Of a stretch of DNA of 64,000 nt, positions 25,170 to 42,827 are shown one piece after another (the stretch's first letter is position 1; each line of letters starts with the position of its first letter). Source of the DNA: Escherichia coli. Its GTDB lineage: Bacteria > Pseudomonadota > Gammaproteobacteria > Enterobacterales > Enterobacteriaceae. The position numbers and the translations under genes were made by a program. The notes under the pieces were generated by a model, which was given only the letters and a program-made list of their open reading frames with translations, had not been told where the DNA came from and did no database searches. The stretch lies in NCBI RefSeq assembly GCF_013315695.1, contig NZ_CP054353.1. One strand, given 5' to 3'.

Positions 25170-25221
25170 AAAAAGGCACCTTACGAGGTGCCTCTGATAA
25201 TTAGCTAAGTGCGTGTTGTTC

Positions 25222-25322
25222 ATGTCGGATGCGGCGTGAACGCCTTATCAAACCTACAAAACATTTATATTCAATATGTTGCAATGACCGCGCAGGCCAG
25301 ATAAGCGTAGCGCATCTGGCAA
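25222..25322. repeat. REP element cluster
   Basis: GTCGGATGCGGCGTGAACGCCTTATC and CAGATAAGCGTAGCGCATCTGGC units. Confidence 0.6.
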
Positions 25323-25451
25323 TTTTGCGCTTGCCCTTATCCTTCACAGCGCCTTATTAATTCATCGAGATAATATTTACTGCCATTTCATTCACGTCTA
25401 TTCTTAATTTGCTGCTTTAAAAACAAGTGATTGAGCAAAATTGAGGCAAAA

Positions 25452-25817
25452 ATGGACTGGTATCTGAAAGTACTAAAAAATTATGTCGGTTTCCGGGGTC
25501 GTGCGCGGCGCAAAGAGTACTGGATGTTTATTCTGGTCAACATCATCTTTACGTTCGTGCTGGGGCTACTGGATAAAATGTTAGGCTGGCAACGTGCCGG
25601 TGGCGAAGGCATCCTGACGACAATCTACGGTATTCTGGTGTTTTTACCATGGTGGGCAGTTCAGTTCCGCCGCCTGCACGACACCGACCGCTCGGCGTGG
25701 TGGGCACTGTTGTTCTTAATCCCGTTTATCGGCTGGCTTATTATCATCGTCTTTAACTGTCAGGCGGGTACGCCAGGCGAAAACCGCTTTGGACCAGATC
25801 CGAAACTGGAACCTTAA
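25452..25817 (+). CDS. yhaH: DUF805 inner membrane protein
   Basis: ORF 25431..25817; start MDWYLKVLKNYVGF gives 121 aa. Confidence 0.8.
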   Translation: MDWYLKVLKNYVGFRGRARRKEYWMFILVNIIFTFVLGLLDKMLGWQRAGGEGILTTIYGILVFLPWWAVQFRRLHDTDRSAWWALLFLIPFIGWLIIIVFNCQAGTPGENRFGPDPKLEP

Positions 25818-26058
25818 AACAAATCTCCTCGCCGGATGTCTGACTCATCCGGCTTTTATCATTATGTTGATGAATAAATAATCTACTAATGTTTATTTAA
25901 ATTATTTCAATGTCGTTATATAAATTACATATAAAAAACGACCATGTATTTATCTTAAATATCAAAACCTTTATAACATCCGAAAAAGAAAGATACGAAT
26001 AGCATTTACTCCATCCCCGGAATAGACTTTCGCAACTTTTAATTAAAGGGATGTTTTT

Positions 26059-26415
26059 ATGCAGTGGTATTTAGCCGTATTAAAAAATTATGTTGGTTTC
26101 TCTGGTCGTGCACGTCGTAAAGAGTACTGGATGTTTACTCTGATTAACGCCATCGTCGGCGCTATTATCAATGTCATTCAATTGATTTTAGGTTTAGAGT
26201 TTCCATTCCTTTCTCTCATTTACCTGGCAGCAACAATCATTCCGGTCATTGCTCTGTGCGTTCGTCGTCTGCACGATACTGACCGTTCAGGTGCGTGGGC
26301 GCTTCTCTATCTGGTACCGGTCATTGGCTGGTTAGTTCTGTTTGTATTTGCCTGTTTAGAAGGCAATTCTGGCAGCAATCGTTACGGAAACGATCCGAAG
26401 TTTGGTTCAAATTAA
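26059..26415 (+). CDS. yhaI: DUF805 inner membrane protein, paralog of yhaH
   Basis: 118-aa ORF; shares WYLxVLKNYVGFxGRARRKEYWMF and RRLHDTDRS motifs with yhaH. Confidence 0.8.
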   Translation: MQWYLAVLKNYVGFSGRARRKEYWMFTLINAIVGAIINVIQLILGLEFPFLSLIYLAATIIPVIALCVRRLHDTDRSGAWALLYLVPVIGWLVLFVFACLEGNSGSNRYGNDPKFGSN

Positions 26416-26465
26416 TCTTAGAATTGGGGCGATATTTCGCCCCTTTTTATTAAAAATAACAAATA

Positions 26466-27362
26466 TTATTTTCCGCTAAAAAGTTTGGGAATTTCCCGCA
26501 GACACCAGGATTTCGCCTCCCCCATACTGTCACGACGCCAGGCCATAATAATATCGATCTCGCTGGTCGATTCCGGGCTGACGACACGCAACCGCCCTTC
26601 CGCAATATCTTTTTCGACCATCGGATACGGCATCGTCGCCACGCCAAGCCCCGCCAGTAATGCCTGACGTTTATCTTCAATCGTGCTCACCGTTAAACGC
26701 GGCTGTTTGTCCAGTAGCTGTACGGTCAATACCGGGCGCTCACGAGCGGTATCCGCCACCGCAATTCCACGATATTTCACGCGCGTCACTTCAGATAACG
26801 GTTCCGGCTCCTGATGAATCGGGTGATCAGGCGCGGCAACATAGACGTTCATTAAGGTATAGAGTTTGCGCGAGTTGATCTCCGACGAGGAGCGAAAATG
26901 CATATCCGGCGCGATAACAATATCCGCCCGCCCCTGCTCCAGCCGTTCCCACGCCCCTGCCAGCACTTCAGTGATGATTGCCAGTTGGGTATTGGCTTTT
27001 GCCGCCAGTTTGTCGATTAACGGGAAAAAGGCAGGTGTCGGTACCAGCGCTTCGGTCACAATGGTGAGATGCGTTTCCCAACCGCGCGCGAGAGCTTCCG
27101 CATCGGTAGTCAGTTTATCTGCGGCTTCCAGCAAAACGCGCCCTCGCTCCAGCAACATCCTCCCGACATTGGTGAATTTGGTGCGATGGCCCGAGCGGTC
27201 AAACAGCACCACATCCAGCTCTTCTTCCAGTTTTTGCATGGTGTAGCTAAGTGCGGAAGGCACGCGTCCCAGCTCATCCGCCGCCGCCGCAAAACTGCCC
27301 CGGCGATCGATCGCATCCATAACCCGTAGTGCTTCCAGCGTTAATGCCCTTTCTTTGGCCAT
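26466..27362 (-). CDS. yhaJ: LysR-family transcriptional regulator
   Basis: 298-aa ORF with N-terminal HTH; divergent from yhaK. Confidence 0.85.
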   Translation of the reverse strand: MAKERALTLEALRVMDAIDRRGSFAAAADELGRVPSALSYTMQKLEEELDVVLFDRSGHRTKFTNVGRMLLERGRVLLEAADKLTTDAEALARGWETHLTIVTEALVPTPAFFPLIDKLAAKANTQLAIITEVLAGAWERLEQGRADIVIAPDMHFRSSSEINSRKLYTLMNVYVAAPDHPIHQEPEPLSEVTRVKYRGIAVADTARERPVLTVQLLDKQPRLTVSTIEDKRQALLAGLGVATMPYPMVEKDIAEGRLRVVSPESTSEIDIIMAWRRDSMGEAKSWCLREIPKLFSGK

Positions 27363-40403: not shown

Positions 40404-40748
40404 ATGACGGGGATAACCATATTTTATGGCGATAACATCATTCGTTATGTGGTTAATACAAAAAAGGGGCTGAGGCCATATTTCAAGCAATTACCGGATA
40501 ATTACCAGGCAAAATTTGAGTTAAATTTAATGAGCAAGTTCTCAAATTTTATTATAAATAAACCATTTTCAGCGATAAATAATGCGGCACGTCACATTTT
40601 TTCACGCTATTTGTTGGAGAACAAACATTTATTTTATCAATATTTTAAAATTTCGAATACATGTATTGATCATCTCGAACAATTGATTAACGTCAACTTT
40701 TTCTCTTCTAACAGGACGTCATTTTGTGAATGCAATCGTTTTCCATAA
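40404..40748 (+). CDS. tdcR: tdc operon regulator TdcR
   Basis: ORF 40392..40748, AT-rich; start chosen at MTGITIFYG; true start uncertain. Confidence 0.55.
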   Translation: MTGITIFYGDNIIRYVVNTKKGLRPYFKQLPDNYQAKFELNLMSKFSNFIINKPFSAINNAARHIFSRYLLENKHLFYQYFKISNTCIDHLEQLINVNFFSSNRTSFCECNRFP

Positions 40749-41003
40749 ATTCCTCTCCCCTCATAGGCGACGAATAGCATTTTGTGTTGAGGATCACAAA
40801 ACGAATAATTGCTGGTCGCCGCGATAAGGTCAGCCAAAGACAACAAGGGGAATTTTCACAGAGCTTTTGATCGGCGTAGGCCACAGAATGTTGCTTCGTT
40901 TACTGTAATGCCGGGTAAATGAGCGTTTTTTGATAGTGCGAAAGAACCCTGCGAGGAAAATAAGCATCTATTATTGTTTGTCATGATGACAAGGCAGGCA
41001 TCA

Positions 41004-41543
41004 ATGAAAGGCTTCCCAATTGCACATATTTTTCACCCTTCAATCCCGCCAATGCACGCAGTGGTTAACAATCACAACAGAAATATTGATTATTGGACGG
41101 TAAAAAGAAAGTTTGCAGAAATTGTCTCCACCAATGACGTTAATAAAATATACAGTATAAGTAATGAACTGCGGAGAGTATTATCTGCAATTACTGCATT
41201 GAATTTCTATCAAGGCGATGTTCCTTCTGTCATGATTCGAATCCAACCGGAAAATATGAGTCCATTCATCATAGATATTTCTACAGGAGAACATGACGAT
41301 TATATCATACAAACATTAGATGTAGGCACTTTTGCACCTTTTGGCGAACAATGTACTTGCTCAGCCGTCAATAAAAAAGAGCTGGAGTGTATTAAGGAGA
41401 CGATTTCTAAGTATTGTGCAAAATTCACCCGAAAAGAAGCCATCTTACCCCCCCCTACGTATTTTAATAAAACATCCATTCCTTCAGATTGTTGGCAAAT
41501 TCTCTTTTTTTCACCCGATCATTTTAATAATGATTTTTATTGA
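41004..41543 (+). CDS. yhaB: Uncharacterised protein YhaB
   Basis: ORF 40974..41543, AT-rich; start at MKGFPIAHIF gives 179 aa; start uncertain. Confidence 0.6.
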   Translation: MKGFPIAHIFHPSIPPMHAVVNNHNRNIDYWTVKRKFAEIVSTNDVNKIYSISNELRRVLSAITALNFYQGDVPSVMIRIQPENMSPFIIDISTGEHDDYIIQTLDVGTFAPFGEQCTCSAVNKKELECIKETISKYCAKFTRKEAILPPPTYFNKTSIPSDCWQILFFSPDHFNNDFY

Positions 41544-41564
41544 TTATTTATAAAGGATAAAATA

Positions 41565-42740
41565 ATGTCCCCTGTTTCATCAATTGGTAATGATATTAGT
41601 AGTGATTTAGCCCGTCGAAAAATGAATGACCTTCCTGAAAGCCCCATAGGAAATAACCTCGAAGCACTAGCACCAGGCATAGAAAAACTAAAACAGACCT
41701 CTATTGAAATGGTCACTTTACTTAACGCGTTACAACCAGGTGGGAAATGCATTATCACTGGTGATTTTCAAAAAGAATTAGCGTACTTACAAAATGTAAT
41801 TCTTTATAATGATTCGTCTCTTCGTATGGATTTTTTTGGTTATAACGCCCGAATTATTCAACGATCAGACAATACCTGTGAACTTACAATTAATGAACCG
41901 TTAAAAAACCAGGAAATATCCACAGGCAATATCAATGTTAATTGCCCATTGAAAGACATTTACAATGAAATCAGGAGGTTGAACGTAATCTTTAGTTGTG
42001 GGACTGGAGGTATAGTTGATCTATCCTCTCTGGACTTACGGAATGTCGATTTAGAACTTTATGATTTTACAGATAAACATATGGCCAATACAATTTTAAA
42101 TCCTTTTAAATTGGATGACACAGATTTTACTAATGCCAACATGTTTCAGGTAAATTTCGTTAGTTCAAAACAAAACGCCACAATCTCATGGGATTATTTA
42201 CTAAAAATAACGCCTGTTATAACAAGCATTAACGATATGTATTCTGAAGAAAAAATTAAGCTTGTCGAAAGTTGTTTAAATGCGCTTGGAGATATTACCG
42301 AAGAACAATTAAAAATCATGAGACTTGCAATTATAGAATCTATACCAAGAGCAACTCTAACAGATCAATTAGAAAATGAATTAACAAAAGAAATATATAA
42401 AAGCTCATCGAAAATTAACAATTACTTGAACAGAATTAAATTACCAGAGATGAAAGGATTCTCATCAGAAAAAATAGATTATTACATCGATATAATCATT
42501 AAAGATTATGAAAGCGTCAAAGAAAATGCTTATCTAATCGTTCCAAAAATTAATTACAATACAGATTTAAACATAGAGGATTCTAGCTCAGAGGAATTCC
42601 TTTCAGATAATACACTAGAGAAAGACGAAAATTCTCATGACAATTGCTTTGAGGTCGTAAAATATAACACATATGAAGCTTATAACTCAGAGAAGCAATA
42701 TTTTACCAGAGAGGACTATACGTATGATTACGACCTTTAA
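41565..42740 (+). CDS. yhaC: Uncharacterised protein YhaC, with a short run of pentapeptide-like repeats
   Basis: 391-aa AT-rich ORF; repeat-like stretch LSSLDLRNVDLELYDFTD...LDDTDFTNANMFQVNF. Confidence 0.7.
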   Translation: MSPVSSIGNDISSDLARRKMNDLPESPIGNNLEALAPGIEKLKQTSIEMVTLLNALQPGGKCIITGDFQKELAYLQNVILYNDSSLRMDFFGYNARIIQRSDNTCELTINEPLKNQEISTGNINVNCPLKDIYNEIRRLNVIFSCGTGGIVDLSSLDLRNVDLELYDFTDKHMANTILNPFKLDDTDFTNANMFQVNFVSSKQNATISWDYLLKITPVITSINDMYSEEKIKLVESCLNALGDITEEQLKIMRLAIIESIPRATLTDQLENELTKEIYKSSSKINNYLNRIKLPEMKGFSSEKIDYYIDIIIKDYESVKENAYLIVPKINYNTDLNIEDSSSEEFLSDNTLEKDENSHDNCFEVVKYNTYEAYNSEKQYFTREDYTYDYDL

Positions 42741-42827
42741 AATGCAATATAGACTTAATAATTTCTTACAAAGTCTATTATTAATACCGTAGATATTTAT
42801 TCATCTTACACTATGCTCCAAAAAGCA

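Follow-up and report, generated by a model that had tools for sequence, protein, structure and literature searches.

Segmental allelic replacement by homologous recombination, which yields mosaic genes, is general in Escherichia coli core loci. Inner-membrane proteins can also serve as host factors for phage genome entry, as ManYZ does for lambda and NfrB for N4, and Ler is an antagonist of H-NS. The genes yhaH (b3103) and yhaI (b3104) of E. coli K-12 encode inner-membrane proteins of the 'y-ome', and both are still classed as uncharacterised (PMC11551758). Ler activates yhaI 36-fold in enterohaemorrhagic E. coli (EHEC) (PMC3891560), a table of CpxR-modulated genes includes yhaH, yhaI and yhaJ, with yhaI at 3.2-fold (PMC2731931), and the small RNA SdsR represses yhaH of Salmonella (PMC5137417). 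Phages PhiWec188 and PhiWec190 need YhaH for infection, and complementation restores sensitivity (bioRxiv 10.1101/2024.11.29.626071; PMC12695924). Here, we analyse the yhaH-yhaI pair in a 64,000-nucleotide stretch of E. coli chromosomal DNA (NCBI RefSeq assembly GCF_013315695.1, contig NZ_CP054353.1), referred to below as the window. Both genes, and both yhaI alleles in RefSeq, were already known and annotated; what is new is descriptive, namely that a core gene sits beside a cassette that strains may lack, that the population shows three states, and that yhaI contains a 173-bp mosaic block which appears to be of genus-level depth.

The first-pass annotation of the window described two DUF805 genes with an AT-rich spacer between them, and open reading frames (ORFs), Pfam and the RefSeq annotation bear this out. 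The ORF of yhaH (25452..25817, + strand) encodes a 121-amino acid DUF805 protein predicted to lie in the inner membrane and is the conserved core copy, and that of yhaI (26059..26415, + strand) encodes a 118-amino acid DUF805 protein, the accessory copy, present here as a non-K-12 allele (WP_001198783.1). Both match the 111-position PF05656 profile over its full length, YhaH with 120.9 bits (profile 1-111; E-value 4.5e-35) and YhaI with 108.9 bits (1-110; E-value 2.5e-31), against a gathering score of 25.7 bits. Window positions 25200-26700 are 100% identical to four complete E. coli genomes; the annotated gene order there is yqjF-yqjG-yhaH-[DUF805]-yhaJ(-)-yhaK. The matching RefSeq record names the pair yhaH and 'DUF805 domain-containing protein', the Prokaryotic Genome Annotation Pipeline (PGAP) leaving the second gene without the name yhaI. 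Window-type, HS and K-12-like strains all encode the YhaH protein of the window (WP_000384145.1), downstream of yqjG; by the same slot and the identical protein, the gene is the ortholog of K-12 yhaH. No third DUF805 copy was found within the 64-kb window.

In E. coli, yhaI is an optional AT-rich cassette: strains either lack it or carry one of two strongly different versions. When 5,426 complete E. coli genomes were searched reciprocally, the window (W) allele was found in 2,288 (42%), the K-12 (K) allele in 2,081 (38%), no yhaI in about 1,055 (about 19%) and intermediates in 2-4, figures that are counts and not population frequencies given the clinical bias of the collection. The K allele is near-monomorphic, with 2,075 of the 2,081 copies at 99% identity or above; for the W allele, 1,803 copies reach at least 99% and 485 lie at 95-99%. 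K-12, HS, B and O157:H7 carry the K allele, and O103:H2, O111:H8 and Shigella the W allele.

Comparison with strain CFT073 (B2), which has yhaH only, sets the breakpoints of the cassette at 25813..26464 (+ strand, 652 bp). It contains the last 5 nt of yhaH (the end of the last sense codon and the stop), a REP-like hairpin, the spacer, yhaI and the yhaI terminator. In CFT073, these 652 bp are replaced by 40 unrelated bp with their own hairpin, TTAAGCACCTTGTAAAAGGTGCTTAA. The 43-bp single-gene junction of this strain matches at 40 of 43 positions in E. marmotae and 38 of 43 in Escherichia sp. E2562, a divergence close to that of the flanking genes. It occurs in 1,010 of the 5,426 genomes, including Nissle 1917, an O25b:H4-ST131 strain and avian pathogenic E. 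coli (APEC) IMT5155, the B2 and phylogroup labels being taken from a few named strains. As the junction is orthologous in B2, E. marmotae and E2562, the yhaI-less state is old in Escherichia, and its flank-like divergence rules out both a recent deletion of a two-gene state and a recent import. A simple deletion of yhaI in B2 was ruled out, the place being filled by 40 bp of unrelated DNA with its own hairpin, common to E. marmotae and E2562. The cassette ends were searched for signs of a mobile element and carry no integrase, insertion sequence (IS) element or direct repeats.

The two versions differ in the middle of the gene. Window and K-12 YhaI share 85% identity, and 17 of their 18 amino-acid differences fall at residues 48-103. 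Relative to K-12 and HS, the window differs by 0-4% in yhaH, the first 135 nt of yhaI and yhaJ and by 4-8% in the noncoding spacer, and inside yhaI identity falls to 70-76%. The mosaic block that separates the alleles (26194..26366, + strand) spans the end of loop 1, the second transmembrane helix (TM2), the cytoplasmic motif, TM3 and the start of the C-terminal tail. It contains 54 mismatches in 173 bp (69% nucleotide identity), compared with 3 in the preceding 135 nt and 0 in the last 49 nt. For codons 46-107, the proportion of differing synonymous sites (pS) is 0.63, synonymous divergence (dS) is 1.40 and nonsynonymous divergence (dN) is 0.19, giving a dN/dS of 0.14. The dS of yhaJ is 0.066 for the same strain pair, 0.49 between E. 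coli and E. marmotae, 1.31 with C. rodentium and 1.56 with Salmonella; block divergence therefore looks comparable to that between E. coli and Salmonella, that is, of genus-level depth, although only 48 synonymous sites, in a gene whose codon bias is low, underlie the block value and inflate it relative to yhaJ. The gene occupies the same slot as K-12 yhaI and is nearly identical to it in the first 45 codons and the last 11, so that by position the window gene would be an allele of K-12 yhaI with a middle of different descent.

Most of the block's 17 amino-acid changes conservatively exchange one hydrophobic residue for another in TM2 and TM3, and RRLHDTDRSGAWALL has no change. Together with the low dN/dS, this looks like ortholog-type divergence joined by recombination and not like diversifying selection. 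Both alleles' blocks show 50-54% nucleotide identity to yhaH, and neither the 5,426 genomes nor the window contained a second yhaI-like copy, which excludes intragenomic gene conversion, whether from yhaH or from another donor copy. Matches at 75-92% identity, considered as a third allele or donor, were all frameshifted, assembly chimeras or W/K recombinants; rare W/K recombinant proteins do occur (P0004, P0006 and P0007).

Sequence comparison indicates that yhaH and yhaI are old paralogs and not a fresh duplication. In a pairwise BLASTP alignment, the proteins share 63 of 118 residues (53%, E-value 2e-44), a similarity that chance would not produce; their DNA is about 57% identical overall, synonymous sites are saturated, and by blastn DNA similarity is left only in two motif-coding blocks. 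Block 1 of yhaH (25452..25547, + strand) is 79% identical over 96 nt to yhaI 26059-26154, homology that could be used for unequal crossing-over, and block 2 (25668..25708, + strand), encoding RRLHDTDRS, is 79% identical over a 42-nt stretch to yhaI 26263-26303. The motifs WYLxVLKNYVGFxGRARRKEYWMF and RRLHDTDRS that the first-pass annotation listed are present in both proteins; a third was mis-transcribed as GNxxRxGxDPK and in reality reads G-x-N-R-[FY]-G-x-D-P-K (GENRFGPDPK in one protein, GSNRYGNDPK in the other). The central region was correctly named as the divergent part, conservation being poor at about residues 27-68.

Neighbour-joining with 65 DUF805 proteins, on 119 alignment columns and with 200 bootstrap replicates, recovered a YhaH clade (98% bootstrap) and an Enterobacteriaceae-specific YhaI clade (82%), joined as sisters with 40% support. 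As each clade holds its own orthologs in other genera, the split predates the radiation of these genera. The idea of an old duplication with divergence therefore stands as regards ancient paralogs with separate orthologs and, given the 40% for the sister relation, lacks support as regards duplication at this site. The two isolated 79% blocks and the separate ortholog sets do not fit a recent tandem duplication. YhaH orthologs at the same locus share 75-88% identity in Salmonella, K. pneumoniae, C. rodentium, C. amalonaticus and S. electus, and database matches at 73-78% are found in Enterobacter, Buttiauxella and Yokenella. The nearest relatives of YhaI outside E. coli, at 59-68%, come from C. 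amalonaticus, C. rodentium, Intestinirhabdus alba, Superficieibacter electus and some unnamed sequences. A contig scan with YhaI by exact 8-residue patterns recovered no Escherichia, Citrobacter or Salmonella and only distant DUF805 genes at 43-57% identity, used as tree outgroups; the E. coli species representative in that scan is probably a yhaI-less B2 strain, which would explain the miss.

The yqjG-yhaJ interval is a hotspot for DUF805 copy number. A synteny comparison with eight other taxa found yhaH only in Salmonella enterica, K. pneumoniae, E. marmotae and Escherichia sp. E2562, as in E. coli CFT073, yhaH followed by a yhaI-type gene in C. rodentium and C. amalonaticus, a yhaI-type gene only in I. 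alba (locus L091), and three DUF805 genes in tandem in S. electus (L092:2619-4360). The slot next to yhaJ thus holds a yhaI-type gene in E. coli, two Citrobacter species, I. alba and S. electus, four genera in all. This patchy distribution is the kind displayed by acquired genes. By the same comparison, yhaH appears to be the core gene of the interval, inherited vertically. Several DUF805 copies within one 12-kb locus were also seen elsewhere (L052, L057, L058, L078, L081), with two or three in Polaribacter and two each in Hafnia paralvei and Aquimarina.

Base composition separates the two genes as well. The annotated AT-richness of yhaI was confirmed (43.4% GC, against 51.1% for yhaH), and a codon-usage comparison narrows the difference to third codon positions: GC at these positions (GC3) is 0.607 in yhaH and 0.412 in yhaI (Fisher p = 0.003), with positions 1 and 2 equal. 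At 63 codons for identical aligned residues, 40 end in G or C in yhaH and 26 in yhaI (p = 0.02), so the gap reflects codon choice and not amino-acid content. The GC3 of yhaI ranks fifth lowest among the 47 coding sequences of the region (z = -1.36; regional mean 0.54), which is atypical and not extreme, as yhaB, yhaC and tdcR lie far lower. The AT-rich spacer (25818..26058, + strand) is 241 bp long with 29% GC; positions 25854-26093 form the third most AT-rich 240-bp stretch in the 64 kb, fewer than 1% of such stretches being at or below 29% GC. In each of the four species with both genes (E. coli, C. rodentium, C. amalonaticus and S. electus), GC3 is lower in the YhaI type than in the adjacent yhaH. 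I. alba lacks yhaH, and its YhaI-type gene has a lower GC3 than yhaJ. The spacers of C. rodentium and C. amalonaticus are likewise AT-rich (29.5-29.6% GC), and between genera the spacer sequence is alignable only near the ribosome-binding site. The composition of yhaI is atypical, as is usual for acquired or silenced genes, and its deviation is moderate. Vertical inheritance of both copies with similar composition, which the first-pass annotation had set against its own suggestions, describes yhaH and does not describe yhaI. Its suggestion that a xenolog had replaced one copy holds in spirit, in the form of the optional cassette and the internal allelic block; replacement of a whole gene from a distant source was not seen.

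Each gene has its own hairpin and T run. That of yhaH (25831..25853, + strand) is a REP-like, G+C-rich terminator hairpin with an 8-bp stem including 6 GC pairs, followed by TTTTATC; it belongs to the left part of the cassette and is absent from B2 strains, which have a different hairpin at that place. That of yhaI (26426..26443, + strand) has a 7-bp stem including 6 GC pairs, followed by TTTTTATT, and lies between yhaI and the convergent yhaJ, which is on the - strand and ends at 26466. With a terminator each, yhaH and yhaI are most likely two separate transcription units, and the spacer would hold the promoter and control region of yhaI. A promoter scan of the spacer gave no match to the sigma-70 consensus, a search against Rfam gave no family there, and a scan for the high-affinity H-NS motif gave one weak, uninformative match. 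The activation by Ler, an antagonist of H-NS, and the 29% GC of the spacer make H-NS-type silencing the most likely regulation of yhaI; Ler and envelope stress would relieve it. Upstream of yhaH, between yqjG and yhaH (25200-25440), are palindromic repeats of the repetitive extragenic palindrome (REP) or bacterial interspersed mosaic element (BIME) type, for example GGATGCGGCGTGAACGCCTTATC at about 25229-25251; positions 25218-25254 give a sub-threshold Rfam match to the REP-related naRNA4 family, and identity of 25200-25440 to K-12-like strains is only 84-91%, with about 10 bp of indels.

Recombination between the paralogs has left natural single-gene yhaH::yhaI(K) fusions. In one (P0255; locus L094:3001-3369 of E. 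coli GCA_045905255.1), a single chimeric gene lies between yqjG and yhaJ and joins YhaH residues 1-80 to YhaI(K) at the RRLHDTDRS block; in another (P0244), the junction is at PFIGWL. The fusions appear to be products of unequal crossing-over at the shared motif blocks, block 2 being the fusion crossover site. A 137-amino acid YhaH with an internal 16-residue duplication was also noted among proteins P0255, P0244 and P0121.

Both proteins would be small inner-membrane proteins that begin with an amphipathic helix, cross the membrane with three helices and expose invariant GRARRxEYW and RRLHD motifs to the cytoplasm. In an alignment of 52 sequences, the invariant residues are G16, R17, R20, E22, W24, R69, R70, H72, D73, N107, G110 and P113. 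The AlphaFold2 model of YhaI (predicted local distance difference test (pLDDT) 89.7, predicted template modelling score (pTM) 0.78) has an N-terminal helix at 2-10 and long helices at 20-44, 50-73 and 78-99, the last broken at 86-88, including Pro87. The model thereby displays the DUF805 hallmarks of three long hydrophobic helices with GRARRxEYW, RRLHD and NxxGxxP motifs. By the positive-inside rule, GRARRKE and RRLHD would be cytoplasmic and the NRYGxDPK tail periplasmic. No relatives were found in the Protein Data Bank (PDB) by sequence or by fold, the sole similarity being an insignificant match to cytochrome b (E-value 0.13), which makes the label 'putative cytochrome' that older annotations give to yhaI and yhaH (PMC3891560) appear unfounded. 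Shigella database entries use the same label for both genes. Among NCBIfam models, YhaH gave two matches below curated cut-offs (the VP0952 and ABZJ_00895 families) and YhaI none, and the PADLOC models for anti-phage defence gave no match at E <= 0.1.

Taken together, the data probably describe ancient, separately transcribed paralogs, in which a core yhaH was joined by a gained yhaI cassette that later underwent block exchange and is kept at low expression or silenced. The ancestral Escherichia locus would have been yhaH alone, as kept by B2 E. coli, E. marmotae and Escherichia sp. E2562; judged from these few outgroups, gain of the cassette by non-B2 lineages is the simplest and most likely reading. 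Homologous recombination in the conserved flanking genes yhaH and yhaJ may have brought the cassette in, the donor being an enterobacterium that already had the tandem layout, as in Citrobacter. A second exchange would then have replaced the 173-bp internal block of yhaI, with crossovers in the conserved motif-coding gene ends, and produced the two allele classes; the K class, being near-monomorphic, is taken as a later arrival than the non-K-12 class of the window. Weak expression of yhaI would agree with its low GC3 and with the AT-rich DNA upstream. The anatomy of the genes, their paralogy, the three population states, the limits and depth of the block, the synteny in eight other taxa and the orthology of the junction without yhaI are demonstrated by the data; that the cassette was gained and not lost, its horizontal source, silencing and any function of the proteins are the parts of this account that we infer. 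Several points weigh against it. The direction of change is drawn from few outgroups, a set without E. albertii, E. fergusonii, E. ruysiae and E. coli clade I, and phylogroup assignments come from a few named strains. The tree is a neighbour-joining tree of 119 columns. No donor of the cassette or the block was found in a collection of 5.8 billion proteins, in which the closest relative of each allele is the other one (73% amino-acid identity across the block; everything else reaches at most 66%). The inflated block dS and the clinically biased census have been mentioned, and a yhaI-type gene directly upstream of yhaJ in four genera fits an ancestral pair followed by several losses equally well.

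That last possibility, which we regard as less likely, holds that the tandem pair is ancestral to Escherichia, Citrobacter and relatives, that yhaI descended vertically at about three times the rate and drifted towards AT through weak expression, that it was lost independently in Salmonella, Klebsiella and an Escherichia ancestor or B2, and that the alleles are an old balanced polymorphism narrowed by recombination to 173 bp. The shared slot by yhaJ, the family-specific YhaI clade with its 82% bootstrap, and W and K as mutual closest relatives with no known donor all speak for this reading; yet the yhaI-less junction is one orthologous sequence in B2, E. marmotae and E2562 and not a set of independent deletions, five examined lineages have yhaH alone, and YhaI identities depart from the species order that YhaH and YhaJ follow (Citrobacter 59-63% and S. 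electus 63-64%, where YhaH gives 86% and 75%). A balanced polymorphism would account for the near-equal allele counts (42% and 38%) and predicts a narrow, sharp-edged divergence peak like the one seen, but an old balanced allele is not expected to be almost monomorphic as K is, and the dN/dS of 0.14 and conservative changes bear no sign of diversifying selection.

Two further explanations place the origin of yhaI elsewhere. That the whole gene is a recent xenolog from a distant AT-rich organism, merely resembling yhaH, draws on its low GC3, on the 40% support for sister clades, and on YhaI being 54-57% identical to DUF805 proteins of Paenibacillus, Exiguobacterium, Streptomyces and Halopseudomonas and 53% identical to YhaH. 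We consider it very unlikely: YhaI groups, at 82% bootstrap, with the syntenic yhaI-type genes of Citrobacter, Intestinirhabdus and Superficieibacter, to which it is 59-64% identical, its composition lies no more than 1.4 standard deviations below the local mean, and the 8-residue pattern scan found no distant sequence above 57% identity. A recent tandem duplication, with all differences including the W/K block due to rapid divergence or yhaH-yhaI gene conversion, is less credible still and can practically be set aside. Adjacency, common strand, similar length and near-identical motif blocks suggest it, and the natural fusions show that the genes recombine; against it stand the overall DNA identity of about 57% with saturated synonymous sites, the separate orthologs of both genes in other genera, which already refute it, the distance of both blocks from yhaH (50-54%), and a dN/dS of 0.14, which argues against rapid adaptive divergence.

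DUF805 genes are also found in phages. The phage 'moron' membrane-protein family phrog_12855 contains a DUF805 domain, and the Shigella Shiga toxin (Stx) phage 75/02 carries an intact, unannotated 129-amino acid DUF805 ORF (NC_029120.1, about 16334-16723; L097:2971-3360) that is 40% identical to YhaI and is also present in phage POCJ13. In phage 75/02, the ORF runs against the direction of the nin-region genes around it, a moron-like placement. It is conceivable, though improbable in our estimate, that DUF805 proteins are inner-membrane gateways for phages or toxins, that the three-state yhaI polymorphism is kept by frequency-dependent selection, and that yhaI and the Stx-phage gene act as decoy or exclusion paralogs of yhaH. 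The need of PhiWec188 and PhiWec190 for YhaH, the two DUF805 finds in phages and the near-equal frequencies of W and K hint in this direction, and the dN/dS of 0.14, with mostly conservative swaps inside membrane helices, points away from it.

Elsewhere in the window, tdcR, yhaB and yhaC (40530-42752) form a strongly AT-rich block with GC3 of 0.28-0.32, far more deviant than yhaI. A CS1/CblD-type chaperone-usher fimbrial operon of four genes is annotated between exuT and exuR (14419-19518); the 240 bp that come next (19516-19755, 20% GC) are the most AT-rich stretch of that length in the window. A higA antitoxin gene adjoins a truncated higB toxin pseudogene at 1926-2416, according to the annotation of the matching RefSeq record, from which the window is offset by 1 bp somewhere between positions 15,000 and 20,000.

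Of the complete E. coli genomes, only some 38% are represented by the K-12 reference yhaI. In about 42%, the allele present has a TM2-TM3 region that appears as diverged as that of another genus, and the roughly 19% without the gene correspond to the B2 lineage, including uropathogenic E. coli (UPEC), ST131 and Nissle 1917. Allele state and yhaI absence therefore matter for DUF805 knockouts, for studies of Ler and Cpx regulation and for phage-host work. Natural absence, two alleles and yhaH::yhaI fusions provide ready-made variants for probing DUF805 function, possibly including phage entry.

Set beside the known systems, YhaH resembles ManYZ and NfrB as an inner-membrane protein required for phage infection, and a link from there to the yhaI polymorphism is speculation. 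With the H-NS-silenced, Ler-derepressed AT-rich genes of EHEC, yhaI has in common AT-rich DNA upstream (29% GC), a low GC3, a patchy occurrence and activation by Ler; it differs in lying on no recognisable mobile element, and the EHEC data concern the K-12-type allele. The yhaI tract is unusually short (173 bp) and deep (31% nucleotide difference) for an E. coli mosaic gene, has no sampled donor, and belongs to an inner-membrane protein and not a surface antigen; it shares with such core genes a short, sharp-edged divergent tract within near-identical DNA, two classes and rare recombinants. The closest counterpart is the K-12 pair of y-ome inner-membrane proteins itself, with the same yqjG-yhaH-yhaI-yhaJ locus, an identical YhaH and two full-length DUF805 proteins, from which the window departs in carrying the other allele class of YhaI.

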